From: Pecten maximus
Taxonomy: Eukaryota
Reading direction: 5' to 3'
Assembly (NCBI RefSeq): GCF_902652985.1
Contig: NC_047025.1
Coordinates: 6,572,001 to 6,636,000 of the forward strand
DNA: 64,000 nt
Below the pieces are notes generated by a model. That model had not been told where the DNA came from and ran no database searches. It saw only the letters and a program-made list of their open reading frames with translations. A program made the translations under genes and the position numbers. This document shows positions 23,594-64,000 of the stretch, in pieces; the first letter of the stretch is position 1, and every line of letters begins with the position of its first letter.

Positions 23594-26500
23594 TCATACT
23601 GTTTCTGTCCAATCTTCCCTTGCCCAGTCAGGCAATGGTGTCTCATACTCCCACTTTGGCCCCTGTAACCAGAAGTAAAACACAAAAGTTTTATTAATAT
23701 ACATAACAAATGTAGATCAATATTACTTCATAGATTATGGAGGAAATGTTCAACAGAAACCACATAAGTTGTAGGGGTGAGATTCTCAAAAACCTGACTT
23801 TCCAGAAAATTTGTATTAATCAGTTGGATATACAATGTAAATAGTGAAAAAAATAATTATGTAAAATCTATCAAAATCATAAGCATCTGGGTAGCACATG
23901 ACATACCTGTAGAATATAATTAGCCAGATGAATTACTGTAATTAAGGAAATGAATAAGTCTTTAAACATATGGAACAAAATGCACTCAACAAATTACAGG
24001 ACATAATGGCTACTTCAGCAATTGCTATGATTGTTCATCAATAATGATTATATTATGACACTGCCCCTCTCCCCCAATACTGACAAACACCAAGCTTTGG
24101 TCATGTGACCATATGACCACTATTGAGATGCCACAGATAGTCACAGATTTTGCTCTTTCAAGAATTTCTCAACAGACTCCAGAAAATGTGAAATATTTCA
24201 ATATATATAACTCATCTACGATATTAGTGATTATCATTGACATAAAATTTAATTCACATTTTCAAAAAAAAAAAAAAAAAGTTTGAAAGTCTTAAAAACT
24301 TGATATTTTCTAACAAATTAAAACTATAATGATTGAAATAATTAAAAGGTGTTTAAAATAATTATTAAACAATGTTAGTTAATGTGTCCCATATAGGTAG
24401 TCACCTTGTATTTAAGAGCGTGAAGGTACATGATCATATCAGCTGGCTCTGGATCTCTGAAACTCTTCTTACAGTAGAAGCATTTTTCATCAGGTACCCA
24501 TTTCTGTGGGTCAAATTTTGGTTTTTCAGCTGTCACTACAGGAGAAGCCTGTCCACACTTGTCAGAGCTCAATCCTTCGGTTGGTGTATCATTATCAAAG
24601 TCACTGTTAACAAGTTTACATCGTTTAGCTTTAGGTTCTTCCTCAGGTAAGTATGTCCTAGTAAGTACAGATGAATTTGAAGCTTCTTCCTCACACAGAT
24701 TTTCATCAGAAGTTTTTCCCTCACACTGATTGGAACTTGAAGCCTCACTTTGATTTAACCTACAATCACTTTCCTGAGAAGAATTAGATTGATAAGCTTT
24801 ATTGTGAAAATGAGAAGAATCTGCCTCTCCTTGATGTTTGACATTTGTGTGATCAGCCTGTGCTTTCATCTCCTCCAGTCTTTTCTTAAATAATAGGTTA
24901 TCTCCTTCAACCCATAAACCAGTGTTGTGATTTTCTCTAAAAGATTTCACAATCTGTAATATGGAAAAACAACATTTTTTTAACTATTCAAGTATTAAAT
25001 TAAGTATCTACATGTATGTCTAAAACAAATTAATTGTGCAATACATGACAGTTTAATGAATTACTCTAGATCTCCTCTACCGAATGTTTTACGTTGATGT
25101 AGGTCAACCTACATTCTATATACGACAACCATAACCCATGTATGAAATTCAAGTGAAATTTTGGCGTGTTTAATTTTGGCTCATTCACCCCAGGCGGCAA
25201 ATAAACCAAAATATAACCACATCCAAAATATCCCAAAGTATGGTATAGTGTAGGAGATAGAGCTCAAACAAGATCAAGTATGGGAGGTTAGGACAGACAG
25301 AAGGATGGACGGACAAAATGCAAAACTTCAGTCCTCCACCTATCCCCTCCCCTGTCCCGTTTTTGTTGGGGGACTAATTAAACCATTTCTAAGAAAAGAT
25401 AAGTGTTTCAGGCATTCTAGACAAAGCATATTCCATATTTGTGGCCAATTAAAGTATTATTGCCAGCAATATATTCAGAAATTTTATAGCTTCAAACTGA
25501 ACATTCATAAACTTTTACCTCTGTCAAAGATTTTTCCAGAATGCCACCTTTACCGTTGTTTGGACCAAAGCAGCCTTCGTTATACATGGGGTCATTTTTT
25601 ATTGGAAAGCCTTCAATCAAAGAACAACATATTAATAATTTACATCCTATCTCTATCAAGCATGGCTCAATTAGAGATGAAGTGACAATCTCTCACAGTA
25701 TATACATTTCAGTTGAAGTTAATGTCTGGGAACAATTAGAAAGTCTTTAATAGAAAGTCTAGAAACAATAGAAAGTCTAGGAACAATAGAAAGTCTGTGA
25801 ACAATAGAAAGTCTGGAAACAATAGAAAGTCTGGGAACAATAAAAGTCTGGGAATAATAAAAAGTCTGGGAACAATAGATGGATATACAGTACCTACTAA
25901 TGATATACAAAATCTGTGTATTGGTTACCTACCAAGGTACTGCAGGTGAAGTCGGATCTGGTGAGTTCTGCCGGACTGTGGCAAGCCTTAAATAAATACA
26001 TTCATGCAAAATGAGGAAAATAATAAATGTTACCATGCAACAACAGATACACTATACCTCCTTCTACTTAATAAACCAAACATTTATGGAATTATATCAC
26101 TGATTTAATTTATTTGACAGGTAATGTCATCAGTACAAGCATTGTCTTGCTCGTTCAAAACAGATAAATATTTTTGAAGTATGTACTTTGTCAAAAAAAA
26201 AGGAACAAAGGGATGGAACATCAGATACAGCTGAAAAAGGACTATTTTAGAATTGATGATTCTGAAAAAAATGAAGAAGGGACTTTATTATGAGGGCAGA
26301 GGCTTGTGGATAAGGGCTTTATTATGAGGGCAGAGGCTTGTAGATAGGGGCTTATTTGAGGACAGGGCTTATTTGTGGGTAAATATCTTAATAAGCCAAA
26401 AACTTACACCTGATCAAACTGGACGTTCCATTGTAGCTGATGAATTCAAACACAGTTTTGCTGGCCTTACCGCCTGGTACCACACCATACAAACTGTCTT

Positions 26501-29500
26501 TGGAAGACAGGACACCTAATGGTTGATCGCACTCTATGACACCTCTGAAAACAAAGATATGGTATTACTATTATTAGCTAATTTATTACTACAACTGATT
26601 TTAAAGTCTGAAAACACAGGTATTACTTAAAGGGGCTTGAGTAAAGTCTAGGTTGTCAAAATTAAACTTACCGGAAAATAGGTATTCTTTCCAAATAGTA
26701 AAAGTTTTAATCTTTAGATTAATAATTTAAAAGCAGTGATACTCTCAAGATAAACCAAAGTTCTTCGAGTATTAAGTCCTGAAAATTCTTAATTCGACTC
26801 GAAGTAACACAAATCACAGCAAAAAAAAACAAGAGGCCCATGGGGCCTGTATCGCTCACCTGGTTGGATTAGACCAAATGTTGAAATAATATTCATATTC
26901 AAATTGTTTTATTTGTAAAACTCTAACAATGCTATATATGGTTATAGTGTGGGAATCCGAACTGCTTTAAAGATTAATGAAGTCCAGACTCTCTTAGGTC
27001 TGAAAGACCTCAAGAATTGTTTATAGAACATGCATTCATCACTTTATGACTAGTAGCGATTTAAAGGAATTACCTCTATTTCACCTATTGGGCCCGCCCC
27101 TTTGGCCATTCGGGGGTCAGAGTCACCATTTATGCAAAATCTGTTCCCCTGTTTCTCACCAAATTGGGTTCAAATCCATTCATAACTTGATGACTAGTAG
27201 CGATTCAAAGGAATTACCTCTATTTCCCCCACTGGGCCCCTCCCTTTTGACTCCTTTAGGGTCAGAGCCACCATTTATGCAAAATCTGTTCCCCTTCCCC
27301 CAAGGATGTTTCTGACCAAATTGGGTTCAAATCCCTTCATAACTTTATGACTAGTAGAGATTTAGAGGAATTACCTCTATTTCCCATATTTGGCCCCGCC
27401 CCTTTGGCCCCTCGGGGGTCAGAATCACCATTTACGCAAAATCTGTTCCCCTTTCCCCAAGGATGTTTCTGACCAAATTGGGTTCAAATCCATTCATAAC
27501 TTTATGACTAGTAGTGATTTAAAGAAATTGCCTCTATTACCCCTATTGGGCCCGCCCCTTTGGCCCCTCGGGGGTCAGAGCCACCATTTATGCAAAATCT
27601 TTTCCCCTTCCCCCAAGAATGTTTCTGACCAAGTTGGGTTCAAATCCATTCATAACTTTATGACTAGTAGAGATTTAGAGGAATTACCTCTATTTCCCAT
27701 ATTTGGCCCCGCCCCTTTGGCCCCTCGGGGGTCAGAATCACCATTTATGCAAAATCTGTTCCCCTTTCCCCAAGGATGTTTCTGACCAAATTGGGTTCAA
27801 ATCCATTCATAACTTTATGACTAGTAGTGATTTAAAGAAATTACCTCTATTACCCCTATTGGGCCCCGCCCCTTTGGCCCCTCGGGGGTCAGAGCCACCA
27901 TTTATGCAAAATCTTTTCCCCTTCCCCCAAGGATGTTTCTGACCAAGTTGGGTTCAAATCCATTCATAACTTTATGACTAGTAGCGATTTAGAGGAATTA
28001 CCTCTATTTCCCATATTTGGCCCCGCCCCTTTAGCCCCTGTGGGGTCAGAGCCACCATTTATGCAAAATCTGTTCCCCTTCCCCCAAGGATGTTTCTGAC
28101 CAAATTGGGTTCAAATCCATTCATAACTTGATGACTAGTAGTGATTTAAAGGAATTACCTCTATTACCCATATTTGGCCCCGCCCCTTTGGCCCCTCGGG
28201 GGTCAGAGCCACCATTTATGCAAAATCTCTTCCCCTTCCCCCCAAGGATGTTTCTGACCAAATTGGGTTCAAATCCATTCATAACTTTATGACTAGTAGT
28301 GATTTAAAGGAATTACCTCTATTTCCCCTATTGGGCCCCGCCCCTTTGGCCCCTTGGGGGTCAGAGCCACCATTTATGCAAAATCTCTTCCTCTTCCCCC
28401 AAGGATGTTTCTGACCAAATTGGGTTCAAATCCATTCTTAACTTTATGACTAGTAGCGATTTAAAGGAATTACCTCTATTTCCCCTATTGGGCCCCACCC
28501 CTTTGGCCCCTCGGGGGTCAGAATCACCATTTATGCAAAATCTGTTCCCCTTCCCCCAAGGATGTTTCTGACCAAATTGGGTTCAAATCCATTCATAACT
28601 TTATGACGAGTAGCGATTTAAAGGAATTACCTCTATTTCCCCTATTGGGCCCCGCCCCTTTGGCCCCTCAGGGGTCAGAGTCAACATTTATGCAAAATCT
28701 GTTCCCATTCTGCCAAGAATGTTTCTGACCAAATTTGGTCAAAATCCAATAAGAACTTTATGACTAGTAGAGATTTGAAGCAAATGTTGACGGACGGACG
28801 ACGGACGGACGACGGACGTTGCGCCATGGCATAAGCTCACCGGACCTTCGGTCCAGGTGAGCTAAAAACATACAGTATTTGTATACAATACACTTTTTTC
28901 CTGTACATTTCGGTGTTAATTTCATTACTTATAGGCACAAACACTTGTATAATCATCATTCTGATATAGATTTCGTCAATAGATATTATGCATGCTTCTG
29001 ATATGCAAACGAAGGAATGCCCCGTTAATACAACTTACAATCTGAAAGCATACTAGGTATTACTTATAATGACCACTTATAATCTGTTGTAAAGTCAAGA
29101 AACAGATTCCTATGTCTTGAGGAATAATTCTTCCCATGAGAATATGTATATATATGACACAGTTTGGTGAGGATCGCATCAGCATATTCCAGAATTATGT
29201 GTGGGAGGCTCCAGTATCAAAATTTGATGGGTGGTGAGGAAAAAGCCCCATTTGTCTAGATATATAATTTACTAAATATGTTTTAATATTTGATGGGTGG
29301 TGAGGAAAAAAAGTCCTATTTTTCTAGATTTATAATTTTACTAAAATATGTTTTAATATTTGATTGGTTGTGGGTCTCTGAAAATATTTCCCCACCCCTT
29401 CCACATGGATAATTTTGGAACATCCCTAATGAAAACTGCTACAATAATATGGTTTAAAACTGGAAATATTTTACTGCTGATTTTGGTGTTTTTTTTAACT

Positions 29501-32500
29501 GATTACAGATCTCAATCCTATTCACAGTTGAATGTACAAAGTTAACATGAAATGAAGTTTTATAAGTCGGTTGAAAATCTTGGGTATTATATTTTTCTAT
29601 AACCTGAAAATTTCTATGAATATATCTAGTATGTAAAATATCCAATTTTTAAAGCAGTCATGATTTACTCTCAGAGATGGTTTTTGATAAATTACAATTG
29701 AAAGTGGAAAATGCATGAAAGGAATGTTATACAGTAGAAAGTCTCTGGCAAATAGAAAAACTAGAAAATGTCTGTAAGACACAAATGATTAGCTAGTAAC
29801 ATTGCATTTGCATCAGGATGGGAGGGACATGGATAACACTATATGCCCCCCCCCCCCCCCAACCATTTCATGGCGGGGGCATAACAAGATTAGCCATTGA
29901 TTCTTTTCAATACCACACACAGGGAATCCCAACACTAAACAGCATATAGAACATCATACTTTTTTTCAAATTGAATTGCCAAAGTCTGCATATATAGTAA
30001 GATAATTGTTATGTCACAAACTTTTATGAAAGTGTTTTGATATGAAAGCTCATGACTTTCCACTGATTGCCATCATTAATCTAACACTGTTCTAAGACTT
30101 ACTCGGGGAATTTCCCTTTAACTCTTGCTAGATATTCCTTCTGAACCCTCCTTTGAAGAATATCATCCTCCATCTCACGAGTTTTTTCTGCAGACTTGGC
30201 CATGATAAGGAGTCCTGAAGTAAGCCGGTCCAGACGGTATATTGCTGCAGACATAGCAAATAACTGTAATCTTTTCATATAATTCAATTATTAACGATTT
30301 TTAAAATGGATCTAAATAATGAATTGGCTAAAGACATAAAGAAATCTTTTCAAAAATTATTATTTTACAAAACTTTATAATAGTTAAACATTCTCATCCT
30401 TGCCTTTCTACATCCTCCATGTATTATGACATGATACATACCAGTATTTGTTTTCATTTGAATTTTAATTAATAGAAAAAAAAATGTCACAAATTAAAAG
30501 ATAAGATTAAATGCAAATCATAAATATTTCTGTTGAACATATTTAAACAAGTTTTTATAAGATCATGAATATTCATTTGTATTAACAAAATCAATGTTCA
30601 ACTTCTTTGAATTTAGATTTAAAATTTATCTTCAATTTGTGAAAGATAAAAATTCTTGGAAAACATGTCCACATTTTTGCCAATATATTCAAGGGTATAT
30701 ATAATGTACATAATTACATGTATTTACTTTGGTTGTAAACAGGAACAAAAGGCCCAATTGAACTGTATTGCTCACCTGTTCTGTAGCTATGATGATTTGT
30801 ATTAACATTAAATTTAAAGTTACTTTAAATTGTGTCATTGATGCAGATCCTTTAATCAAAATTTTGTTTTTTAATGAACAAATTTGATATCCCTTCATCT
30901 CAGTATACTACAAACCCAATACCAGGAACATGGGTCTCTTCATGGTTATTGAGAAATATTTTTTTTACACATTTTAAACATGTGACTTTAAAAGGTCAAG
31001 ATCATACTATATGATTAACCTTTTAGCTCATAAACCCAGCATGTTACGGGCCCAATATTTTAACCCTTGTGCCTCTTCGTTTTTTTTAATTTGGAAAAAA
31101 AAAAAAAAAAAAAATTGCAAAAAAATGAAAAAAAGAAAAAAAGCATTGAAAATTTCCAATACTTTATCAAGCATTGTTCAAAATATTGATATGGAGTTTC
31201 TGTAAGACCTACTTCGCAGATTAGTGTATCCCAGATCTTTGCCGAGGATGAAGGGGATGGAGTTGAAGCGGTATCTTCCACAGGGGTGGACGGGGATAGA
31301 GGACGGTTTGTTTATCACAATAACATTTTCATCATCTGTCACAATCTCCAAAGGAGTCCCGATCACTGGGTTCTCATGTCTGTCAAAATAATCAAGATAA
31401 CGATGTACAAAATTGTCTTCATACAAATACCAATACATGTACTAAATTGTTTCAATTTTTTTGTTGAAGTTTATTTCTATTACCTGTTTATTATTTACCT
31501 GTGTGTTTCTGGTTACTTATATACCAGGTAATCATGTCTACCTGAATGTGTATTTGAATGAATTGATAGGCTGTATATTTTGGTTACCTTTGTATTTCAA
31601 TTACCCTTGTGTTTCGATTACCTGCGTATTTTGATTACCTGTATATTTTGATTACCTGTGTATTATTTTGATTACCTGTATATTTTGATTACCTGGGTAT
31701 TTTGACTACCTGTATATTTTGATTATCTGTATATTTTGATTACCTGTGTATTTTGATAACCTGTATATTATTTTGATTACCTGTATATTTTGATTACCTG
31801 TGTATTTTGATTACCTGTATAATTAATTTGATTACCTGTGTATTTTGATTACCTGCATGATTTGATTACCTGTATAATTTGAATACCTGTGTATTTTGAT
31901 TACCTGTGTATTTTGATTACTGTGTATTTTGATTACCTGTATAATTTGATTACCTGTGTATTTTGATTACCTGTATGATTTGATTACCTGACAGTTTATT
32001 TTGATTACCTGTGTATTTCAATTACCTGTATATTTTGCAATTGATTACCTGTATATTTTGATTACCTGTATAATTTGATTACCTGTGTATTTTGATTACC
32101 TGTATGATTTAATTACCTGACAGTGTATTTCAATTACCTGTGTATTTTGATTACCTGTATATTTTGATTACCTGTGTATTTTGATTACCTGTATGATTTA
32201 ATTACCTGACAGTGTATTTTGATTACCTGTGTATTCGATGTGATAAAAAATCATTATCCTTCAATATTTTGTCTGTAGTGACCACTTCACCATTTAATGA
32301 AATGTCTCCATCTTGAAGAATTTCTTCCTAGAAAATCATAAAATACATTTTCCAATTAGACAAACGATCAAGACTAGTATCAAATAAAATGGTACATAAT
32401 CTGTTACAACATTAATGTAAACACTCAATACAAGGAAAAAATGGCACCTCAAATCATTGCCATGAAAAACAAACAATGCAAACAATAACCAAAAAACCGA

Positions 32501-36860: not shown

Positions 36861-37296
36861 ACATGCAGAGCTGTCCTCTCACAAACATTCAAGCAGGAAG
36901 GTCGGGAAATGGTATTTAAATGATTTAAGGTAGGCTCAAAGTTTGTTTTACATGGAATTCTTTCAAATGCGTTAATTGATATGAATGCTTCGATTCTTAG
37001 TCAGTCCAATTGTATGCAACTTTGACAGATTTTGCCGTGCACATCTCTACAGTAGACATGATTTGCATTGATCATAGGTCAAACAATACTATTCAGTTTA
37101 GCAGTTTAAAATGATTCATTGTGTCTCAAACATGTGTTGTATATGTACATATATAGCGTATTAAGTCCTCACAGCAGGTATTTTCTTTTAAAGGTTCGTC
37201 GATCGGTTCACATCTCCTGCAGTTGAAGATGACAAGATATATGTAGTACTGTACATTATAAGCTCTAATTAGACGAAGACTACGTTCTGTAACAGG

Positions 37297-40200
37297 ATGA
37301 AGCTGTCCTTTAGTTTGGTTGTATCTGCCCTTTTTCTTGGCTACATTGGTCACTCTATGTGGGTTATCTATGGGATTTTCTTCCCCACTCCATGTGCTAA
37401 AGGCAAGAGATGTATTTATCCATATATTGGACAGAAACCAACGCCAGAACTAGAGGTTTGTTTTCATAATTTTCTAGGACATGTACGTGTTTATTTTGTT
37501 AATCAAATTACTTTATTTTGTTACATTTTTGTAAAATTTTCATTATTTGATTAAAATATATAAAACTATTTAAATCTTGATTACATACAATGTAGATCTG
37601 TAATTAATATACAATTGTATAGCTTTATTGGCAGCTTATTAAGGTTGATTGTTATCTCCTTAAGTAATTTTTGCTCAGCTTAACTTCAACAAGGGATGTA
37701 TTACTCAAAACTACTTAAACGTGCAATATGCACAAATACAGTTGATGTATATGATAACAATCTTTTTCAGATGCAAATCTTTACCTCTACAAAGCAGAAA
37801 GGTGTCAGTGAAAGTGATCTGAAGCTGATCTGGAGGAATGACAGTTTGGATATTCATCAGACATATGTAAAGTAAGAGTCAACAATGTAAAGTAAGAGCC
37901 AACAATGTAAAGTAAGAGTCAACAATGTAAAGTAAGAGTCAACATGTAAAGTAGGGTGAACAATGTAAAGTAGGGTGAACAATGTAAAGTAGGGTGAACA
38001 ATGTAAAGTAAGAGTCAACAATGTAAAGTAAGAGTCAACAATGTAAAGTAAGAGTCAATAATGTAAAGTAAGAGTCAACAATGTAAAGTAAGAGTCAATA
38101 ATACATGTAAAGTAAGAGTCAACATTGTAAAGTAAAGTAAGAGTCAACAATGTAAAGTAAGAGTCAATAATGTAAAGTAAGAGCCAACAATGTAAAGTCA
38201 GAGTCAACAATGTAAAGTAGGGTGAACAATGTAAAGTAAGAGTCAATAATACATGTAAAGTAAGAGTCAACATTGTAAAGTAAAGTAAGAGTCATCAATG
38301 TAAAGTAAGAGTCAACAATGAGTTTTGTCTCTTTTATTTGAAATACTGTGAAATTACTCTGTATACTGCATTGGCATTTCAAATAATTTGCGGCCAATAT
38401 AACTCAACTGGCTAGAGCACTGACCACATAATTTAACCTCTGGTGTCTGGTGAGTTCCGAGGTACATGATTCAACGCTTCCTATCCGTGTTGGTTCATGT
38501 TTCTCGAGAAGCTGAGAAATGGGCCTGTCTGGTGCTGTTATGGTTATGTCCTCGGGCAAGACATTTTACCCTAATTGATCTGAATGGCATGTAACATTAA
38601 CAGGCATGTAACATTAACAGGCATACCTTTGTTGTTCAGTGAGGTAGTCACCAACTACTACAAGGAGACCCCACCTCAAAATGATCCTGTCTGTCATGGG
38701 GAAATAAACCCCACAAACAAACAAACATATAGCATAAGTTTGTTATGTAATATGTGTTAGCTACCATTAAGCAACTTGTATGAAATAGATGGGTATACAT
38801 GAAATGTTAAAAGAATCTGAAAATACAAAATATTATTAAGATTACTTTCAACTATGTACAGAGACAAGCTAGAATTTGAGATCATTCTTTTACAGAGATG
38901 TAAATGTTTCCATGCCGCTAAAGACAAGAAGGAATGGAACACTGTACATCCATGTGTTCGTCCATCCAAAGGGACATGATCCATTCGACAGCACCTATAG
39001 CGTACACACCTTGGTAACCATGACAACATACTCTCTGCCGCAAGCAGAGTTCTTCAGTCTGCTTGGGGACAGAAATGAGGTACAGTTAAAACATGTCAAT
39101 GCTAATTACTAGCTGTTTCCCCAAAGTAGAGAAAAGCATATTGAAGGTCAGGGCTTTTTCTAAGGTTTTTTTAATAGACCCCATTCTCAATTGAAATAAT
39201 TTCATATTAAATCAAACTTCCAAAATTTTACTCCCAAAAAAATCTGTACCGATTCACCAACTCTCTTCCCAAAATGAGACAAAAAAAGCCCCATACTAAA
39301 CTAGTGAGAAAAAGCCCTGATGGTTATTCTAAAAAGTAAAAATAGGTTAATTAAGATGATATGTGATCTTCAAATATGTGAGGTTATCATATATTCATTA
39401 CAATTAGATTTGATTGTAACTGTCACTTTTCGTTTATTTTGTTAAGAGTGAGACTCTGGACAGAAACATCCCAATCAGCCACTGGAGGAAGAAATTGTTT
39501 GTGACATTGGTGACCGACCCCTTGGCTATAGACATGCATGCAATTCCAGCCGATTTGTATAAGTTCATCAGGTAACACTCTGAAGAAATGCTATACATAA
39601 TATTTAAAATCATTGGCATTGGTTAAACTCTCGGTCAATTTTGAATTTTAGTACATATTCATAAAAAAAAATATGTAAACTAATCCTATACATAATGGTA
39701 GTACTAAATAAGTAACTCAATCTCGCAATTATATATCGGGCTGGTCTCGGCCACAATTGGAAGCGAAATATCAAAGTCAGATGTTTGTTTTACTTTAATT
39801 CAAAGTACTTAATAGGTTTAATTTTTTTTTTTTTTTTTTATTTAACGTCCTATTAACAGCCAGGGTCATTTAAGGATGTGCCAGGTTTTGGAAGTGGAGG
39901 AAAGCCGGAGTATCCGGTAAAAAACCACCGGCCTACAGTCAGTACCTGGCAACTGCCCCACGTAGGTTTCAAACTCGCAACCCAGTGGTGGAGGGCTAGT
40001 GATAAAGTGTCGGTACACCTTAACCACTCGGCCACCAAGGCCCCGTACTTAATAGGTGGGAAAATCAGCTTCTTTGTTTATGTTTTCAGTACAATTAGTT
40101 AAGAATGTGTTATGGTTTCTGTTTCAGTCCTGCCCCAAATGGACGCTACTTGCCAATCGTATACATAGACCATATCAGTTTCAGAGTGAGGGATCTCCTG

Positions 40201-43200
40201 GTAAGGAATACAGTTGTAGCAGTTGTGGAACTTGATGGTTCAATAAATTATTCTATTAAATTATAAGAACAAAAATAAAAGCGACCTCACGTTTGTATGA
40301 ATAATTGATGTTTGCAAATCTATTTGTAATGGTAGCAGCTTTGATCTCTGATTTGAGGGGGTTTTGTAATTTGGTAATTGTCAAAATAAAGAAAAGGCCT
40401 TTACATATTTTAGTTACATAATATGTCTAGTGCTCTGTTTGAGACATTTTCCAGTGCCATGTTCTCCAGGTGACTGTTTGTTTATACTGGTATATATTCT
40501 CAAAAGGTGAGGCCTCGTGGAAATATCACCTTTCCCAGGTTAACAATTTCTAGTATTAACCTAAACACAGTCAATAATTGTATAATATTAATCACTACAA
40601 CATGTTATGTTGTTTGACTGTGTTATGGGTATGTTCCTCTATTTCAGAAGTATTTGATTATTGTGATTCATAATTTTTCTATTTCAGCCAATCAACAAGA
40701 GCTCAAGCACCATGCCTCTGAGTATAACATACTCGCCCATCTCGGTTGGCAAATTACGATTCTGGAACAACATGTTGGAGTCCATGAAGATGCTACATGG
40801 ATTCGGTAATCTATAATTTTTCATTTCAAAATATTTCATTCAATCAAATATTTGAATTAATATAATATTTCATGATAAAGATAGAATCTAGATATAAAAA
40901 ATGGATTCGACAATAGCCTAAGCCTATACAGGTCCTTTCCGCAAATTTACAATCAATTACATATAAATTTACAATTGGTGATCAATGAAAATGAGCTGTT
41001 CTGAATGTGGCAAGTTTGTGATCAAAAATTAAATCTTTTTATTCTCTATGTTGGTGAATTAAAGAAAAATGAATTTCAGTAATGATCATTGTAGAGTTAT
41101 CTCCCCCTTACAGTTATTTTAGAAATGAATGCACAGTAAAGAAGCTAGTGGGTTTTTGATAAATGGGCAGGGCCTGGGTTGTGGTAGCAGGAAATCTCTG
41201 TTATTGTCACCACGACTTGCTTTTGATATTTGTCAAATGACCCATACCAACAGATAAAGTATATTGTTTCTGTAGAACCTTTTCAGCCTTTCCTTTATAG
41301 TCACATGTGAAATAAAAAAAGACATTGTTATACACTCAAAATAATTTAAAAAATAATTGTCTTAATGATAAGATTTTTTTTAGAAAACTCATAGCTTCTC
41401 AAACCATTGAAAGTAGAGTTAGAATGATTGACACTTAGGTTTCACTTCTTCAGGTTTCTCTGATAAAGATACAGATGAGGTGAAAGGAATCTTCGCTGAT
41501 ACAAATTTTACCTTCCTGATGCTAACGTTTGCTGTAGCTGCATTCCATGTAAGTATTGTCTCCATCATAATGATTGTATTTCTCACCTCCAAAAGTGATT
41601 GCATTTTGTTTTAATATTTAAATGTACATTACATGTCATGTACTTTCTTGTTGAATATGTATCATTTGTATCAATTTTTTCCTCAAGGTGAAGTAAATAA
41701 TTTCAATTATCTCTCATACTCATTAAATACATGATATTCTACAAAAAGGTATTAAATTTTTTATTTAGTTAATTTAACAATCATATGATAAATATGAAAA
41801 TGCTCTGTCAAAAATGTCTCTTACTTTATGATTAATATTATTATAAGTCTTAGAGTAAGTATATTTAATAATTTATATATAAGATAAAATATCGTCTATA
41901 AGTAATAGAGATCTTCGAATCGAATACACAGATCTTAGACAACCTTAAATGTATATAAAAGGATATCTTACATTCAACTTCACATATATCTAGAGAAAAT
42001 AATATAGAGATGCTCATTTAAAGTTGACTAACAGATTGAATGAGTTTGCGATCTTCCATGATTCTTCTTTCCCTTCCAGTTACTCTTCGACTTCCTCGCT
42101 TTTAAGAATGATATAAGTTATTGGAAGGGACGTAGGTCAATGGTGGGCCTTTCTTCCAGAGCAGGTAAGATTAATGAAATATATAACTCCTGTATGATGT
42201 AGAAAGAGATATCTCAATTAACCCTGGCGATGTTTAGCTATACGAAAATCCTCTTGCATTCCAAACTTTTTTTTTTTGAAAATTTAAATCCTTCATACAC
42301 AGCACCAATGAGTGGCCATGGCACTTTGTATTGGGAACTTATTGCATTGAGACATCACTAAAGATGTAATGAAATACACAACTATATGTAACAGAGCGCA
42401 GGAATTATATAAATTTAAATCACTGCCTCCGCAAGGGATCGAACCCGGGACCTCTGGCTTACTAGTCTTACGCTCAACCGATCGATCTAAAGAGAAGATC
42501 TCTCTAGCCGAGCGGTATATTGGGGCTAGTATTTACCAGGGTTACATATATTGATGATGCTATCCAACCATGGTATTGCTTTTTTAATTTGTAAGGGGAT
42601 TTATTGTGAGTGGTTTGAAATGTTTTAAAATAAGGGTGTTTTCGAGCTGTGTCTACTTGAAGTGGGAGACAGGACCATCTTTTCATAGGGAATTCCTGGT
42701 TTCACAGTTATAGTTGTGGGACAAAATTTTATGTAATTAGGATGCATTTGTGTGATGCTCAATTTTCTGGTCATTGGAAATACGAAAATAACTATCCTAC
42801 CACATATCAGTTGGATAATTCTGTATTTAAGTAGAAACGTAGGTATAACTGTCGCTATAATTTCTATAATTCAAGTTTTGTGTTGATGTGTAGGAGGTAC
42901 CATCTAAACGCTATTGTGTTTTATGTTTCAGTTCTGTGGAGGTGTGTTTCAACAATAATCATCTTTTTCTACCTGATGGACCAGGAGACTAGTTTACTGG
43001 TACTGGTGCCTGCTGGAATAGGAGCTATTATAGAGGTCAGTCTACATATCATTTTTACTGGGGCTCGGTGGTCTTTGAAATGATAGAAACGATGCATATT
43101 AAAAATTCTTTTTAGTTTGCTTTTGGACCCATTGGAATAAATATTTCATTGGATGTTATTATTTGATACATTGTATGTTTCTGTCAGCAATGTATGAATG

Positions 43201-46200
43201 GGCAGTGATAGCTCAGTCAGCTTAGAGTGCCAGCTATGTTATCTCAGGTGACGATCCGAGGTGCACGTGTGGTTCAATGCTCACTACCCTTGTTTTTCAG
43301 TAAGGTAGTCACCAACTACTACAATGAGACCCCGCCTCAAAATGACCCTAGCTGTTAACGGGCAATAAACCCAGCAAGCAAACTAACAAACTTCCTTTGC
43401 TTCATACAAGCAGTGCACAATAATTCAATACAGTAGATAAATGTCTTTCAATTACAAATTAAGATCTTTAGAAAGATGTCTACACCCCCGTGTATACAAT
43501 CTCATTTATTTTAATTTGAAATTTAAAGTTCTTTGTCTTTACTCAATGTATGTCTAGTCAGCTGACCATTAAAGTTCTTGTGAATATTTTCATTATCTTA
43601 GATCCAAGGTTAGAGCCAACTCCGTTGCTTTAATGAAGGTTCCGTCGGTTCATGATATCCCTTGTCTGGGTACCAATTTACTTATCCTGAACTTGTTGTG
43701 ATTGACTGCTCTTCTTTCTTTGTAGGTTTGGAAAGTAAAGAAAGCTTTAAAATTAACAATACACTGGAAAGGAATAAAACCTACTTTTGAAGTAAGTTAT
43801 GGTGTTTTTGCTCCTGCGAAACTTGATTCAACCTGCTGTAAATTTATACGTTTGTAGATCTCAGATTTTGCAACTATTATTATACCCGAAAATAATTATG
43901 AAACCTAAATAATTAAATCTTGGGTATTCGGACATCCTCTCTAATCAATCAATTCTGACATCTTGAATTAATGAATCCCCTGGAATATTCATGTTTATTT
44001 TAAGCCAGAGTTTGCATATCATTACCATATTCATCCAGCAAAAGTCCATTCTTGGATGTAAGCCTATCCTGTGTATTTTGCATTTCACAACTAGCAGAAA
44101 TTGTTACAGTCTGTCATTCAAGTTAAATGATGTAAATATGTATTTACATGTGAATGACATATACACTTTGATTAATATAACTTTATGGTGGAGCTACAAT
44201 AGCTCAGTTGGTTAGAGTCCTGGTTATAGGTAGTTACCTCAAGTGAATATCCAAAAAAAAACAAAAAAGGTGCTTGATTCGACACTCCCTACCCATGCCG
44301 GTTTATATTTCTCGGGAAGTGGAGAAATGAGACGGTTTGTGTTGTCATGGTTGTTTCCTTGGGCAAGACATTTTACCCTTATTGCTCTGGACGGCACACG
44401 AAGAGCCTCTCATATTTTGTTCAATGAGGTAGCCACCAACTACTACAAGGAGATTGTGCCTCAAAATGACTCTGGCTGTTCATGGGACAATAAACCCAGC
44501 AAACAATCATGGAATGTTACTTGTTAGGATCAATGCCATAAAGAGGAGAAATATGGATTCAGCAAAATGAAATGGAGTTATAAATATGTACAAGTGTTTG
44601 ATGAAAAAGAGTTTGATGAAAAAAACTGATGAAAAAAATATGAAACAAATACACAGATTTTATTCTGACTGTAGGACTTAATTCTGCTGCTGTCAGCACA
44701 ATAGATTTTGAGTAAATTCTGATGACAGCTTGGACATAATTTTACAGGAATAGCACGCAACTAGTAAAACGTAATTTTAAAGGGATAGCAGCTCTAGGGT
44801 TAATCATTGAGTTGAGGTGAAAATTCTGGTTTTAATTGATAAGTGTGGAATTTGATTTAATGTAAGTGATTTGATGTTTTAGCACTGAAGCATTGCACTT
44901 TCTTGTGTTATTTTAAGAATTGTTACTACCACTTTAATTAATATGTGATACATTTTATATATATTCTTTACAAAAAGGTTGGCAAGACTTCTGACCAGGA
45001 GAAAGAAACTGCAGCCTTTGATTCTGAGGTATGTAACAGAATGCTGATTAGACATTGTATCTCTATTATTAGTCATATATCAGTGAAACTGGGAGTACTA
45101 TAGGTTTCCTCCTTGTTTGTCTGTCTGTCTGTCCATCTTTCTGTCCGTCAGTCTGTCCACTCAGTTTTCCTCTCTTTTCTCAGCCATGCTTAAAGGTATG
45201 TTGATGAAAGTACATGTAGTTACAGATCAAGTTTGAGTTTCATATTTTTTGGGTCAAAGTCAATGTCATTATTACTATTTTTAGCGAGGGCCGGTAGGGG
45301 ACATGTATGACTTTAGCAATACCCAGCATGCTTGTTATAATTACCAATGAAAAACCATTGTTAACTGTTAACCCTTTCAACCCTAAGAAACTTTAGTGGA
45401 CTCTACCATTCTTTCATAAGTTGAAGTCCAATATGGTCAGTAGGGGTGAAAGGGTTAAGTGTTTATTGTATGTCGCCGTACTGTTTCACTAATTATGTAT
45501 TAAATCGTTACAGGCTATGAAATATTTGTCCTACCTACTGCTACCTCTGTGTTTGGGTGGAGCTGTGTATTCCCTGTTCTATACACCACATAAAAGGTAA
45601 CATGCACCTGTATTTCTCGTTATCTGTGTCATATCTAAAAATGCGATAATACAACACTGATGTTTTGTCTGTAATGCTATGTGGCTGAGTTAAATGCCAT
45701 ATTAAAATAAATTTAATCTACTGATGTTAGTTAAATTTGATATCAAATGAAGCTATGACAATATATGAAACAGGCAATGCCTTGAAAGAGCTCAGCTACC
45801 TTATCTAGCAGTATAATTTTGCTCTAAATCTACCAATTGCTAAAATGTATAGTGTGGTCACAGGAGTTTGTATCTGGCAATAAGTATTTATAAAAGATAA
45901 TGAGCTTAATACAGACAAGTCTTTTGGGTTTTTACCAACTAGATCAACTACGTTCAGTACCCATAACTCACACCAAACTTTTGGTGTTATTTCAGTTGGT
46001 ATTCCTGGTGTATTCAGAGCCTCGTAAATGGTAAGTTTGTATTAAATCCTCCTTATTGACAAACATTTTTCTTCCTGCTTTTCTGTGTACATGAGGTTTC
46101 TGATATTTTTTTATTGCTGGAAACAAATTTCAAGCTGAAAAATTTATATATTATGATATAATATAATTATGTCCAAAATTTAACAATTGTCATATTATTC

Positions 46201-48154
46201 TATAGACTAGTACATTTACTAAGGGCTATTCGAGTAAAATATCTACCACACCCCAGGACTCCAGGTTTTGTTAAGGGGTACCACCCAAAGAATTTATTTA
46301 GTAAATTACATAGAAGTAATAGGACGGAGATATAAATATAACCATGAAAGAAGTGATTTATTTTGGAGTCCTGGGGTAAGGTAGATATTTTAATGGAATA
46401 GCCCTGATCAATTTGGTCGTAGAGATTCTTTTTACTAAAAGCAAAACCTGAAACTTTTATCCATAGGGACATCTCATTCTGCCGTGATTGCTGTCCTGAA
46501 GTGATTCTGTTTCAGGTTCAAAGTGTACTAAATACATAAAAAAACTTAAGATAAATAACAGTGCTGTTGTGTTAGACATCTTCCTTCCTTGTTTGAAACT
46601 TAATGTTATATTTTGGAATTTTAATATTTTATATCATTCTGTTTCAGGAGTGTATGCATTTGGGTTCCTTTTTATGCTACCTCAACTGTTTGTGAATTAT
46701 AAGGTAAGGCTTCACTCTCCTCTCTGATGACTATATCTTGGTCTCCCTAAGATCGTAGTTCTTTCTTGCTTTTCAATTTGTTGTATACTTTTCCAATACG
46801 GGAACTGAAAACTGGCAACTTTCGAATCGACTGCAAGTTAATTAGTTAATTAAAATTTATACTGACAGTAGTAAGTAACTGTTTTCTAGATATAATTACT
46901 GATGCTCATAGAGCAGAGAATACCATATCCTCAATACTCTAAGGGTTACTGTGTCACTTTGATCAGGATCCATGGAATATGTTCATCCATGATACTCCAG
47001 AGGTTATGTTTACTTTTGCTCACGGAGCCCCTGGAATCCCGGGGATATGTACAGCTGCAATATTTATATGATTTACTCTCGACTAGCACCTCTGGGATAT
47101 GTTCATCCTCGATGCAAAGAGAAAAGTGAACATGGTCTCTTAAGTATCATGGATGAGGTAATTAATATCAAAATGATTTAATATTAAATAAATAATTTTA
47201 ATAATTTTTAACAATTTAAAAAATAATCATTTGTTTCAGATGAAGTCTGTAGCACATCTACCATGGAGGGCTTTCACCTATAAGGTATGTAATTAACCAC
47301 ACATAGGAGTGCTGCTGTAATTATGAAAGGGCCTGCATTGTTGTTTGACAGGCTTTGTTTAGTTTTAACAACTTATTGACAATTACGCTTCATAAATGAA
47401 TACACTTATTCAATGAGGGTTTCCCTGTTTCCCTGGGAACTTTGTTTTGGTGTCATTACTTAGGATATGATGAGATCCTTATTCCACATGATGTAAGGAA
47501 TGCATTAAAGCATTAAATATGTCAGACTGAATCAAGAAAAAAAAAAAGCATAAATTTTGTCTTCATGTTAAAATCTCTTGTTATATTTCCATGCCATTGT
47601 CTTGTTAAAATACTATTGTCTATAATTTTTGTTTTCATTTTTTTCAGGCATTCAACACTTTTATAGATGATATATTTGCTTTCATTATCACCATGCCAAC
47701 CGCTCACCGACTAGCCTGTTTCCGTGACGATGTAGTTTTTGTTGTTTATCTGTATCAGAGATGGTGAGTCCCTTATAATTATATTATCTGAGGTTAAAAG
47801 TTTGTCATCTTGAATTTAATAACTTCAAGATTTTATAATTATCTTGTAATGCTTAAACTAATTTTTTACTTATATTTTTATCAGCGAATTATTGACTTTG
47901 TGATATACAAAAAACAATTTGAAGTTGTTTATGAGCTGCTAGCAGTAGTTTGATAAATATTTTTTGAGAGACCCTCTGAATATAAGAAATCATTTAGTAA
48001 ATATGTTATTTTTATTAAATAAGTATTTTGCAACACTGAATGTTTTGTGATCATCATGATTATTTTCTTTATCAGGCTCTATCCAGTTGATAAAAAGAGA
48101 GTGAATGAATTTGGAAGGTCATATGAAGATGAAGATGAGAAAAAGAAGAATTAG
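37297..48154 (+). CDS. CLPTM1L: CLPTM1-like protein / lipid scramblase CLPTM1L (~524 aa, 17 coding exons)
   Basis: Exons 37297-37455, 37771-37871, 38896-39079, 39447-39571, 40128-40200, 40688-40805, 41454-41548, 42080-42164, 42932-43035, 43726-43791, 44978-45028, 45514-45596, 45996-46030, 46648-46703, 47240-47284, 47648-47763, 48076-48154 join in frame (1575 nt). Motifs: [93 protein letters not shown]; C-terminal KKKN ER-retrieval-like signal. Confidence 0.95.
37865..38320 (+). repeat. Minisatellite, ~20 bp unit (ATGTAAAGTAAGAGTCAACA), ~21 copies, derived from the CLPTM1L coding exon 2 splice donor
   Basis: The first unit overlaps the real junction ATGTAAA|GTAAGA at 37871/37872. Confidence 0.9.
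38397..38727 (+). mobile_element. tRNA-derived CORE-type SINE
   Basis: A-box-like head, CTCGGGCAAGACATTTTACCCTAATTG core, (AAAC)n tail. Confidence 0.7.
39149..39319. mobile_element. MITE with CAGGGCTTTTTC / GAAAAAGCCCTG terminal inverted repeats (hAT-like ends)
   Basis: 12-bp perfect TIR; no clear TSD. Confidence 0.55.
39818..40044 (-). mobile_element. Full-length tRNA-derived V-domain SINE with 13-bp TSD
   Basis: Head GGGGCCTTGGTGGCCGAGTGGTTAAGG, B-box-like GAGTTTGAAACC, V-domain-like CCGGATACTCCGGCTTTCCTCC, poly-A tail; GTACTTAATAGGT duplicated at 39805-39817 and 40045-40057. Confidence 0.85.
42387..42546 (-). mobile_element. 160-bp solo-LTR-like element containing a tRNA-like sequence
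   Basis: TGTAAC...GTTACA termini, TATA on both flanks, and an internal minus-strand tRNA-like segment (~42422-42495) with B-box GGTTCGATCCC. Confidence 0.6.
43208..43391 (+). mobile_element. Internally deleted CORE-type SINE
   Basis: Head ATAGCTCAGTCAGCTTAGAG and 3' end GTAGTCACCAACTACTACA..CCTCAAAATGACC..AATAAACCCAGC shared with the family. Confidence 0.65.
44198..44505 (+). mobile_element. tRNA-derived CORE-type SINE
   Basis: Head ATAGCTCAGTTGGTTAGAG, CTTGGGCAAGACATTTTACCCT core, shared 3' end. Confidence 0.7.
45372..45454. mobile_element. piggyBac-like mini-MITE
   Basis: TTAA|CCCTTTCA...TGAAAGGG|TTAA; a degenerate relative lies at ~50298-50380. Confidence 0.7.
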
Positions 48155-50047: not shown

Positions 50048-51194
50048 TAATATATGGAAATTTTTAAGATTCTGTCACTCAAGAACAACCTAAAGTGAAG
50101 ATATATAGATCATTGGTGTTGGTTACTGAGAAAGACCAAGCATGGTTGGTGGAGGGACTAAAATGATTATTGTTAATATTTATATAATAATCATGGTAAG
50201 CAATTAATTATATATAGATGGGGTTCGCAAATACTTTCATCTATTTTCTTGGATATTATCAGCAATTATTAACAGTGTACCATTTTATAAAGTTTATTCA
50301 TTTCAACCCAAAGAAACTTGAGTGGACTCGGCCATTCATTCATCATCGGAAGTCCAATATGTTCCGTAGGGGTGAAAGGGTAAGGTATTTTGATATCAGG
50401 TTTGATGCTGATTGACTTGGTGTTTTTCTGACGGTGTAAAGTTCTTTGTATCTTTTAAAGTCGCAGAAACTATTTTGTTACCTTTTCAGAAGTGGCAATG
50501 TTGGTGTAAACATTTCATTTTATAGTTTTATATCTAGATCCTTTGCCCAAACAATATGTTAGTGAAACTTAATCAAATTTGATATGTTGATAGTTAGTTC
50601 ACATTAAGAACCTATCAACACGTTTGCTGAGTACTATCCAGATGTAATGGTCCAGGGAAGTTTCGTGTCTAGCCCAGTTTCTCAGGAAGGTACCTGTGGT
50701 TTTCCACCAACTCTTAAGATATTGTGGTTTGGACATCTCAACCCACTACACTATAGATTCCTTTTATGTGTGTTTTGGGGTTAAAAACCTTGATAGTAAT
50801 GCAACGCTTCAATATGTAAACGTGTATTGATTATACATAAGGTGCTTACTAATTGCTTAAATAAGTTCAAATTACTCGGAAGTTTTTTCAGTAGTTTTTG
50901 TGAAAATGTGCATAAATCTGAAGTAAAATATGGTGTTTGTTTAAAATCTTGTCAAACATTCATGTAAGACTCTAAAGTTAATGATCAACTACCTTTTTAG
51001 TAATTCAAAAGCTTTTCATAGTGTATCTTAATATTTTCCTTTATATAGACTGAGGTGTTTGTTGAAAGGACACATCTTCACTAGTGCCACTTCATTTGTG
51101 ACGTGTATTGTTTTAATCAATTGGTAATATAAATTTGCCAACGGCTTCTGTTGCCTACAAAAAGAAATGAAACATACAAATGTATAAAATTATT

Positions 51195-51662
51195 TGATCA
51201 CTTAATTAATACCTTGTATGATATTATTTGATCATTTAATACCTTGTTTGATATTATTTGATCATTTAATACCTTGTATGATGATATCATTTGATCATTT
51301 AATACCTGGTATGATATCATTTGATCATTGAATACCATGTATAATGTCTTTTGATAATGATTTGATACCTTGTATGATATTATTTGATTATGAATTTTTA
51401 CCTTGCATGATAACATTTGATCATTTAATACCTGGTATGATATCATTTGATCATTTAATACCTTGTATGATGATATCATTTGATCATTGAATACCATGTA
51501 CAGTATAATGTCTTTTGATAATGATTTAATACCTTGTCTGATATCATTTGATTATGATTTTTTACCTTGCATGATAACATTTGATCATTTAATACCTTGT
51601 ATGATAACATTTGATCATTTAATACCTGGTATGATATCATTTGATCATTTAATACCTTGTAT
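51195..51662. repeat. Minisatellite, ~30 bp unit (GATCATTTAATACCTTGTATGATATCATTT)
   Basis: Directly visible; it generates the repetitive pseudo-ORFs 51198-51497 and 51487-51771. Confidence 0.85.
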
Positions 51663-52335
51663 CATGAAATGTTCTTGCACGTGTCAAGACTACAAAATGT
51701 TTATGTATTGTTTGTCTTCGGTAGAAATTACAATTCGTGACGTTTTTGCGCTGAAATCAATCTTTATCTAGAGTGAAATCCAGATGAAATGTGTTTTGTA
51801 TGTTAACTGTTTACATATACTGTTGACTTGTTTATTTACTGATGTGCATGCTTGTTTACAAACCAATTGTTCTGTACCCAAATGCCAATGACCGTGGGTT
51901 GAAAACCGAAAGTTCTATTGAAACATAGTACATATTCGAAGTATTCTTCAATCTAGATTATTGTTAGATTCTAATAAAACTGGTCACATTTTTATTATGA
52001 GTATGATGTTATTACTATTTTTTTAAGAATTAAGTGGGTGTGGTTTGTGTTTCCCTGCTTAAGTCATATGCTGGTTTCGTGTTGTTTTATTGTATTCCTT
52101 CAAGTATTTTGAACTTCTTTATTTAGACATATATTAAAACACCAATACTTGAAATTACAATTTGTCTGTGTAAAGTAATTCTTAATGCACACATATTTGT
52201 GTAGTTTGTACATTGTAAAACAGTGCATTAGATGAAATTTTATGTGAAGCGGGACCGTAATAGGCTTCACACGTTTGTCTTAATAACACTAAAAAGAACT
52301 CGTTTTCAGCAAGAAGAAACCATAATATGTTTATT

Positions 52336-55300
52336 TTATTTTTTCCCGCCACAAGAAACTCTAGCATGTATGCCACTGGCTTTACATTGACATCCGTTGT
52401 AATATTTGTTTCTGTACTTGACTGTGAAACCTTTTTCATCGATTTGTCGGCATCGCCCATTCACATCCTTACATACTGAAAATAGAAAAGCGCTATATGC
52501 ATCTAATTGGGGATAAGTAATATGAATATAATTCGAATGACTCAATGCGCATGACATAACTTGATACATGTATCATCGACCTTGTAAATATACTGGTAAT
52601 ATGAAAATGGAATTAAGTCCTGCTTGAAACAACCATTCTTATTGGCTAAAATGTGTTATGCATGCACAATAACTAAAAATGAGACTGATAGTTGAAACGT
52701 TGTCTTTTATTGGCTTGGAGAATTGCAATTTTCCGTTGAAAAAAAATGTTGTCATATCAAATAATTACATTTAGTTCATTTCAAGAATTCATAATGACAA
52801 CAGCAAGGGCATATTGATAGAAAGAAATTGTTGAGGAATAAAATGTGGTTTGTTTTATAGTTCAAGTTACGACTTCGTGTAATCAATTATAAGAATAGTG
52901 TTATATCTGCATGAAGAAAATCCCAAAATTGACGCATTCGTTCAATGTATGTCTTTTGTAAATAGATATGGACAACCTGTCTCCTGATAATCTGTCATTG
53001 CACCAAAATTGATGTAAACTTTTACTCATTTTACAAAAATTGCGAACTAAGTTAAATTATCTTTTAAATATTGAATATAGGATGTCTTATTGTTAGATAT
53101 AATGGAGAACCTACGTAGTAGGGCAGGTGACCCCATACCTATTCATATCGGGTCAGGGAATCGAAACCCTGTCGCCTGTGTAAAATGTTATTGTGTTACC
53201 ATTGTGTCCCCGACCCCTCATCTATGTGATCTGATACATTAGTATAAGTATATAAACTTACAATATCGAGCGACACTTGGTTTATAGCCGCCCCTTTCAC
53301 AGGTGACACACACAAGCATGGCACATCCATTTCTGAAGACATGTTCCCATTCCTCGCCAGGCTTCCTACATTCACCTGTACGTGGGTCCTTGCAACCTGG
53401 GAAAACATGAGAAAATGTTAGCTGACAAATACTATCACTGTAATTGATCTAGGAGATACAAAAAGAAATCAAAATGGAATCATTAGTAATATATATATAG
53501 AACATGTCATAACATATATATGCTGAATAAAACAGCTGTTTAATCATTGTGGGGACTTGTCCCCCCAAAAAAAAGAAAAAAAGAGGGCAAAACACTATTA
53601 TATGACCCAACGTTTTCTTGCCATCATTTTTTTTTGCGTTTTTTATCGGGTGCGAAACTTTCATAATTAATTTCAAATTTCCATGAGGATTCAGACTTAA
53701 CAGGTATGGAATATGTGTTGTTTACACTTTAATACAAGGTGAGATGACATCTATTGTTTAAATATGGCTACACAATCGGTAAATTAAGACTCGATGGTCT
53801 TACTTCCAACTCTTAATCCCACGTATTTCGGTAAAACAAGTTTTTTCTCTCTCAAAAACTGATTTACTACTGTCTATTGGCTCATCATAAGTTATTGGAA
53901 TGAATTCGGCACTAAAGCTGCTGAACTATGTACGTTTTCAATGTACGTATTCTTTTTGTTTGATTATTTCTAATTCATTGCCTGTGTTACCTGCTGGTTT
54001 TGTCCGTATAGACCTACTATAACGGCCATTTGACGTAGAAACCAGACATGTCCTAGTTAGACAGTTTCCTGCCGACCATTCCTCGTTTGCCTTCCTACAT
54101 TTTCCCTGGTACATGCATCCTTTAAATGGAAAACCACAATATTAACACATTTAATTAAAATGAATACATATTGATTGTCCGGCTAGCCATTCAGTTCATT
54201 TTCCTATCACGTACATGTATGGCACTAGCTTTGATGTTCAGAGTCGAAGTCAAGGTATTGACTGCATGACATTATTTTAAACTCATGTGAAGGTAGTTTT
54301 GCTTTCCATTTTGTAACCAACAAAATAAAATAAAAATCTCCAGAATCAACCAGGTTTATGGCAGTAAGTGGAGGTTCTGGAAATAAATCGTTCAATCATT
54401 GACTGTAGGGAGAAAATATTATAATGTTCGCTTTGTCACCATTCAATTTTTTCATTAAGATAACATTTAATGAAAGAGTATGCAAGAGCTGTTATGGATT
54501 TCAAGTACAAATAATTTGCTTACATAGGGCTGGGGGCTTGAGAACGAGAATAAGATGGAGGTGCTAAGTATTTAGAGTAAAAACAAGTATCTACTATATA
54601 GACATCGAGGCAGACTGCTACTTAGGAAAACGTAAATTAACTGACAAAATAATGGACGTGCTAAGATAACCTATGTATAAGGCGATAACCAAATGTCTTC
54701 TACAATGTGAGTTTTTTTCTCTTCGTGTCTCGTTGGTTACATTAGCACAACATTAGGACAGAATAATGTGGGGTTCATGATGAACAATGAACGTGTCCCC
54801 TGGATTTTACTTTAGCAAATCTTCATATGTATGTATTTACTCCAAAGTAAGTAAACGCCTTTCACCCCAATGTGCACATGAAATATAAATGCTGACATGG
54901 TTTTAATTTGTTTGATTGTTTGTTTGGCAACAATTGATGACCATTGCTTTTGCACTTACCCATTGAAGATGCCACGATCCGTGGAGTGGTTTTTCCGCTA
55001 GGCAATTTGTAAGAAATGCATTTTGACGTCATGCATCTCGAATCATCGTTCCATTCCGATTCAATAGACCTGCACACTCCATCGTTACTTTTGCATTCTA
55101 TCATGAAAACGATAGCAAAAGTACAATGTTAGGCATGGCAATAGCAAATAGCGATATCTGCGCTTTACCTGCAGTATTAATCATGTATCATTATATACTA
55201 GAACTACAACTAGAATTATATGTGGAATCTTGCTGTCTGTAGCAATATTGAGCAAGAAACGACGGAAGAAGTTGATAGTGTTATCCGCATGTTTTTCCAG

Positions 55301-63213: not shown

Positions 63214-64000
63214 CTGCAATGTTGGATGAAAACGTGCGTTCAGGAAAATCATTAAGAATTAGTCATTGCATAAGCATGGCAAAACTGTAGGAGTGAATCT
63301 TCGTCCTTAAGGTCCCAACATATCAAATACAAGTCACGATGTGTTTCTCAAATATATTAACATAATGCTAGTAAGAGCATCAATGCGCTTACCTTACTTA
63401 CCTATACATATGGCAACTGTGTTGACTACTTACATAGTATTATACTAATCATTTTATTTCGCACCTACGTTTTAGCTATACGTATTTGTGTGATTTATTG
63501 CTCTCAGCAAAGCGAATGAAGATTTATTGCATTCGTTCATGCTTCTAGAAGTGAAATCCACAATATCCTTATACAGTCTAAATTCGAAAATAGTACTGCC
63601 GCCGTGGGTATGGAATGGTAACAGAAACATTATGTTAATAAAGAAAATATCTTTTGTTAAAATTCAAGAAGGGTTGTTATTTTTATATATATTCATATCA
63701 GTGCACGATTGAAAGATATGCAAATTGTTCAACCAATTGAAAAAGTACTGTTATCTATGAATATAAAGGCATCAGGAATGGGTATGACGTTGTTTTTCCA
63801 TAAATATATAGTTTAAAAAGGATAGTTAAACTATCGTAAAAATGAGTTATGTAACTAAATCATGTTCTTTCATTGTTCGGCTTACTGTGAAAACTGAAAA
63901 AAGATAAAGAAATAAAAGCAAATTGTCATTGCCATATTCCGCACTAAGATATTTTAATTAATAGTGTAAGAAAATTTTTTTTTTCAAATTATGTGATTAC

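Follow-up and report, generated by a model that had tools for sequence, protein, structure and literature searches.

In the scallop Pecten maximus, a minisatellite begins across the 5' splice site of coding exon 2 of CLPTM1L, carries copies of that splice site onward into the intron and does not disrupt the exon. The array occupies 37865-38320 on the plus strand of the window, by which we mean the whole 64,000-nt stretch analysed here (GCF_902652985.1, NC_047025.1:6,572,001-6,636,000, forward strand), in whose coordinates all positions are given. Its sequence was found at this locus alone in exact genome-wide searches, both of its ends occur in a second sample, the first donor is the one used in RNA contigs, and an in-frame stop lies immediately behind it. 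Very probably, therefore, this is a locus-specific minisatellite, likely born by local duplication of 20 donor-spanning bases, enlarged by slippage and unequal exchange, and likely tolerated through splicing at its first donor.

The host gene extends over 37297-48151 (plus strand), with 17 matched coding segments and the Pfam CLPTM1 domain recognised on five exon frames; since orthologues align along this interval over residues 1-524, the gene is intact. Coding exon 1 (37297-37455, plus strand) was delimited by tblastn with three scallop orthologues and by RNA contigs from runs X6 and X10, which place transcription from at least 37191. Exon 2 (37771-37871, plus strand, 101 nt) contributes its last 7 nt as the start of repeat unit 1, and exon 3 (38896-39079, plus strand) was identified by protein matches, with 85-90% identity to CLPTM1L proteins from three scallop genera (three matches of six candidates), and by an RNA contig matching 38896-39079 (X11 record 16). 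Joining 37871 to 38896 gave a frame collinear with the orthologues. The exonic 7 nt of the array encode the end of the residues YVK, which close exon 2 and are common to the Argopecten orthologue, so that the exon 2 end predates the array. The start of exon 3 carries, at 38898-38904 (plus strand), the same seven letters as the end of exon 2, and the spliced mRNA thus has a 9-nt near-repeat across the exon 2/3 junction, probably by chance.

Tandem Repeats Finder (TRF) described 37865-38320 as 22.1 copies of period 20 with 84% matches, and decomposition resolved it into 22 units, 19-25 nt long with a 20-nt consensus, followed by the first 3 nt of another unit. The first-pass annotation had described about 21 copies of a 20-bp unit composed of the 7-nt exon 2 end, the donor and the start of the intron; the unit stands, and the count is corrected to 22. 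Unit 1 begins 7 nt upstream of the exon 2 end and places its GT at 37872-37873. A copy of the donor is present in every unit, with the GT kept in all 22, and 15 of the 22 read AAA|GTAAGA at their first GT; the variants named in that annotation were also recovered, GTAGGG in four units and GTCAGA in one, and GTAAA was doubled in two units. Allowing up to three mismatches, the 20-mer occurs at 18 places in the array (0.01 expected by chance). Within 38081-38297 (plus strand) a 148-nt higher-order repeat brings units 12-14 back as units 19-21, and the final three letters of the array are the first letters of a unit (ATG), so that a 3-nt direct match bounds it. The length and unit order of the array's middle are those of the assembly, while the comparison with public runs, all of them assembled contigs, covered both ends.

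The array thus has tandem units within the 10-100+ nt range of junction-spanning minisatellites and a terminal unit across an exon-intron boundary that is real by orthologue alignment and by RNA contigs ending at 37871. As in other members of that class, the splice signal is repeated in further units and a normal mRNA arises from the authentic site, here in the contigs of both RNA runs that cover exon 2. Decomposition and orthologue alignment together bear out the earlier description of an array that starts at the junction and extends into the intron beside an intact exon.

Reading through the first donor gives GTA AAG TAA, as had been noted, with the stop at 37873-37875 (plus strand), so that every later donor would yield a protein cut after 87 residues. 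This stop was seen in all eight of the 21 later donors that we translated. The accompanying claim that only the first donor is in frame with 38896 did not survive: eight of the 21 later donors (+60, +117, +156, +216, +240, +285, +345 and +408) share its phase. Later donors are therefore ruled out by the in-frame stop and not by phase.

The authentic site (AAA|GTAAGA, donor at 37872-37877, plus strand) is weak, scoring 2.8 bits with the splice matrix used here, and is the only one seen in RNA contigs. The contig match ended at 37871 in both RNA-type runs on exon 2 (X6 record 26 and X10 record 5, from two studies), their RNA status being presumed by the software and all RNA evidence consisting of assembled contigs. 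In the bin 37758-37925 the exon contig by itself accounts for the whole depth (5.83 x 103/168 = 3.57 and 7.72 x 103/168 = 4.73), which shows that the first units carried no RNA contig, and runs X11 and X15 had zero depth on the last ones. Across the four runs, then, no RNA contig lay on the examined units at the array ends, at contig depths of 3-9, where rare isoforms are lost in assembly and low-level or decay-hidden use of a later donor would escape.

These data bear on whether the array tunes CLPTM1L output, more donors giving more stop-bearing, decay-prone transcripts and array length making expression differ between alleles, which has been reported for human CBS. In favour of tuning are the 21 decoy donors, of which 14 share the 9-mer of the weak authentic donor, and the use of later donors in human 6-16 and CBS (PMC1557585). 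Length variation is hinted at by contig depth: over the last units it was 14 times the flank value in DNA run X1 and 47 times in X5, whereas by the same measure a dispersed repeat of CLPTM1L intron 2 gave nearly equal values (21,000 and 19,500); contig depth, however, is not copy number, and the contrast only hints that array length differs between samples. With all four RNA runs silent on the examined units, we regard tuning as improbable. We prefer the reading that the array is likely tolerated because splicing uses the first donor, which still defines the exon; transcripts from later donors would, on general knowledge, be removed by nonsense-mediated decay, and the array would have no function.

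We then considered whether the array is real and specific to this locus. An X5 DNA contig extends from 37053 into unit 2, and contigs of both X1 and X5 enter the last units from the 3' flank, so that X5 has both array ends. As X5 carries a different study code and differs from the window by SNPs, the presence of both ends in its contigs argues that the array is not an assembly artefact. An artefact would fit the fact that the contigs examined reach the array ends and none crosses the whole array, but the differences between units are structured and independent DNA runs show both ends and a pile-up of depth, which makes this explanation very unlikely. Nor did the unit occur elsewhere: all nine exact 18-mer matches and all five exact 28-mer matches in the genome fell inside this array, in searches by exact matching that diverged relatives could escape. 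The wide dispersal expected of a mobile repeat that supplied the donor upon insertion at the junction was thus not found. In favour of an inserted repeat, donor-like words generally abound in the minisatellite units of this genome, and a non-donor word containing CAGG, CAGGTCTA, also forms many tandem triples (2,701 against 1,484 for the reversed control); nevertheless, the restriction of the exact unit to CLPTM1L, and an exonic part encoding residues common to another scallop genus, leave an inserted repeat with very little probability. A metagenome scan for the orthologous intron returned two intronless loci from 89 candidate stretches.

Intron 2 of CLPTM1L also holds, at 38390-38710 (plus strand), a very high-copy dispersed repeat, whose depth at 38630-38694 is about 20,000 times that of the flank. 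Its head resembles the A-box and B-box motifs of a tRNA-derived SINE; Rfam gave no match at E up to 1 across 37000-40500.

The origin that we favour for the locus-specific minisatellite begins with a CLPTM1L junction that presumably held a single copy. Birth would have been a chance local duplication across the junction, seeded at the 3-nt match (ATG) that now bounds the array, and growth would have proceeded by slippage, unequal exchange and multi-unit steps, to which the 148-nt higher-order repeat points, with amplification as for any minisatellite in a repeat-prone genome. Donor choice would be first-come, as in human F7. Minisatellite birth in the Haber-Louis model is reportedly seeded by microhomology of 5-10 nt; CLPTM1L shares with that model a short direct match at both array ends and later multi-unit growth, although its bounding match of 3 nt is shorter than this, which counts against such seeding.

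The novelty that the first-pass annotation implied for this geometry does not hold, since it has already been published for human and amphioxus genes (PMC1557585, PMC3087553, PMC3902484). The CLPTM1L locus is in this sense ordinary and repeats what F7 and the amphioxus "mirages" show. In the 37-bp VNTR of human F7 intron 7, upstream-first donor choice was shown by mutation, and the F7 paper names 6-16, CBS intron 13, lamin B2 and PDGF intron 4 as further cases, noting how seldom the splicing of such arrays has been investigated (PMC1557585). According to that paper, the most upstream donor alone is used in F7, lamin B2 and PDGF, while later ones are also used in 6-16 and CBS (PMC1557585), so that first-only donor use is not a rule. 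Human arrays of the F7 type and CLPTM1L share a first unit across the boundary, identical donors running into the intron and an intact exon, and differ in unit length (37 nt in F7, 20 nt in CLPTM1L) and copy number (5-9 against 22). Unlike F7, CLPTM1L has a higher-order repeat, a stop right after the first donor and a mollusc host, and its donor choice was seen in contigs only, whereas that of F7 was tested by mutation.

The amphioxus mirages, reported at Adh3, the globins BflGb6 and BflGb9, troponin C and PGBD5, have units of 10-160 bp at both 5' and 3' boundaries, leave splicing undisturbed and occur at several loci per genome (PMC3087553, PMC3902484). They share with the scallop arrays minisatellite-like boundary copies, a marine invertebrate host, normal splicing and several loci per genome. 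Length instability is shown for mirages and hinted at for the CLPTM1L array, and mirages are described case by case at both boundary types, whereas our scallop sample was enriched at donors and depleted at acceptors, as detailed below. The literature searched, which included few subscription papers, yielded neither a genome-wide count of junction-spanning minisatellites nor any case in a mollusc.

To place the array in its genomic context, we surveyed 172 stretches of 10 kb, spaced evenly along the chromosome-scale contigs (1.72 Mb in all), 112 in a first set and 60 in a hold-out, with 8 hand-picked stretches kept separate. Tandem repeats made up 24% of the DNA in the first set and 25% in the hold-out, at about 260 arrays per Mb, and 448 minisatellite arrays were counted in the 1.72 Mb; with such coverage, some donor arrays are expected by chance. 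Thus the CLPTM1L array is one of many in a genome of whose sampled DNA about a quarter is tandem repeat. Exons were predicted with a crude, home-made scorer that combined a codon-position model from 26 long frames with generic splice matrices. It placed a plausible exon at all 15 CLPTM1L exon ends tried (scores 5.5-19.5, eight at 10 or above), and at score 10 it called 85 sites in reversed sequence and 222 in real sequence, so that about a third of exon calls are false. The test set consisted of 318 non-coding arrays with units of 10-100 nt, open-frame arrays having been dropped; among their ends, 474 were bordered by clear flank on both sides.

At score 10, 16 arrays began across a predicted donor where random placement gave 6.6 (2.4-fold, Poisson P = 0.0015), and 2 ended across a predicted acceptor where 6.6 were expected (0.3-fold, P = 0.04). 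Over four thresholds the ratio was 2.0-2.4 for donors and 0.3-0.44 for acceptors, neither being significant at score 15, and the hold-out alone gave 7 against 2.6 for donors and 1 against 2.9 for acceptors. Counted by exon, arrays spanned the donor of 11 and the acceptor of 1 of the 469 predicted exons (only 3 and 1, respectively, of the 168 in the hold-out). A flank-swap null gave 15 donors against 5.9 and 1 acceptor against 3.4; this null sets the chance expectation too low, since real donors are the source of donor-like units more frequently than random flanks would suggest, and random placement is therefore the fairer null.

Homology supported six donor cases (Ig, CD36, C8, weakly Med14, TRAF7 and sialic acid acetylesterase). 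Pfam, which detects short exons poorly, supported 4 of 18 non-coding donor candidates (one weakly), none of the 4 non-coding or adjacent acceptor candidates and none of the 8 exons of the hand-picked C1 loci, and a further set of 7 gave one weak match, probably by chance. Extrapolated from small numbers, the 5-6 homology-backed cases in 1.72 Mb would correspond to about 3,000 or more genome-wide. With moderate confidence, the exon model suggests thousands of independently born donor-spanning minisatellites, at perhaps 2-4% of exon ends, over-represented at 5' splice sites and eliminated from 3' ones. The acceptor deficit fits selection, because repeated AGs upstream of a true acceptor would presumably compete with it, and such a donor/acceptor polarity is to be expected if arrays are tolerated through first-come donor choice. 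Tolerance alone does not account for the two-fold donor excess, which may stem from minisatellites being born preferentially at donor-like words or at exon-intron edges.

If true, the genome would serve as a large natural experiment on the choice of 5' splice sites and would supply splicing alleles that vary in length: with thousands of arrays varying in unit length, donor strength and frame, RNA data alone could show when an identical downstream donor is used. A real donor-over-acceptor bias would also tie splice-site recognition to minisatellite birth or retention, and it bears on the idea that new introns arise from such duplications.

Motif counts were rejected as proof of enrichment, being confounded by unit composition, though they point in the same direction. 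Tandem triples of CAGGTAAG numbered 6,118 against 818 for the reversed word (single copies outside arrays, 36 against 27) and those of AGGTATGT 11,167 against 4,801, while the acceptor-like TTTTCAGG gave 122 against 303 although it is commoner as a single word (60 against 33), units being poor in T-runs. We did not rely on these counts because the non-donor CAGGTCTA is enriched too, a match does not equal an array and a small number of long arrays have a heavy weight in the totals. In stretches L053-L164, units were rich in GTGTA, ACACT, CTGTA and CAGGG and poor in A/T runs relative to flanking DNA; this word composition suggests that sequence biases the birth or the survival of arrays. Three arrays in the window pointed to a general clustering shortly inside donors, which was not clear in the sample (20 against 14 within 1-150 nt, score 8). 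Three stretches (L046:3982-5226, L048:6133-10000 and L050:1-4486) each hold two or three different predicted donor arrays, on the exon model and with no Pfam match, and some genes may carry donor arrays on successive introns.

Within the window itself, a second donor array lies at 31571-32235 (minus strand), where about 37 copies of a 17-nt unit start with a first unit across the donor of a predicted RPUSD2 exon. This exon scored 9.3 and has a weak S4 match, with a pseudouridine synthase match at 30102-30287; RPUSD2 stands head to head with CLPTM1L. As first noticed, its unit is unrelated to that of CLPTM1L and the geometry is the same. At 51181-51667 (minus strand), about 670 nt past the stop of a neighbouring gene, a 30-nt array has a unit that holds AAG|GTATT, with a possible acceptor 34 nt upstream. 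As a third donor array it found no coding exon scoring at least 5 there, and it could be the donor array of a non-coding micro-exon or a chance occurrence.

Three further arrays, at 25749-25879, 26277-26370 and 56627-57131 (minus strand), start about 35-100 nt inside apparent donors, and a satellite-like array with a 157-nt unit (about 10 copies, 92% matches) occupies 27033-28780. Finally, one or more multi-exon genes lie at 52337-63262 (minus strand), with matches to the apextrin C-terminal domain at 62308-63262 and then numerous short, cysteine-rich exons that match Fn1/SVWC weakly, apparently one module per exon.
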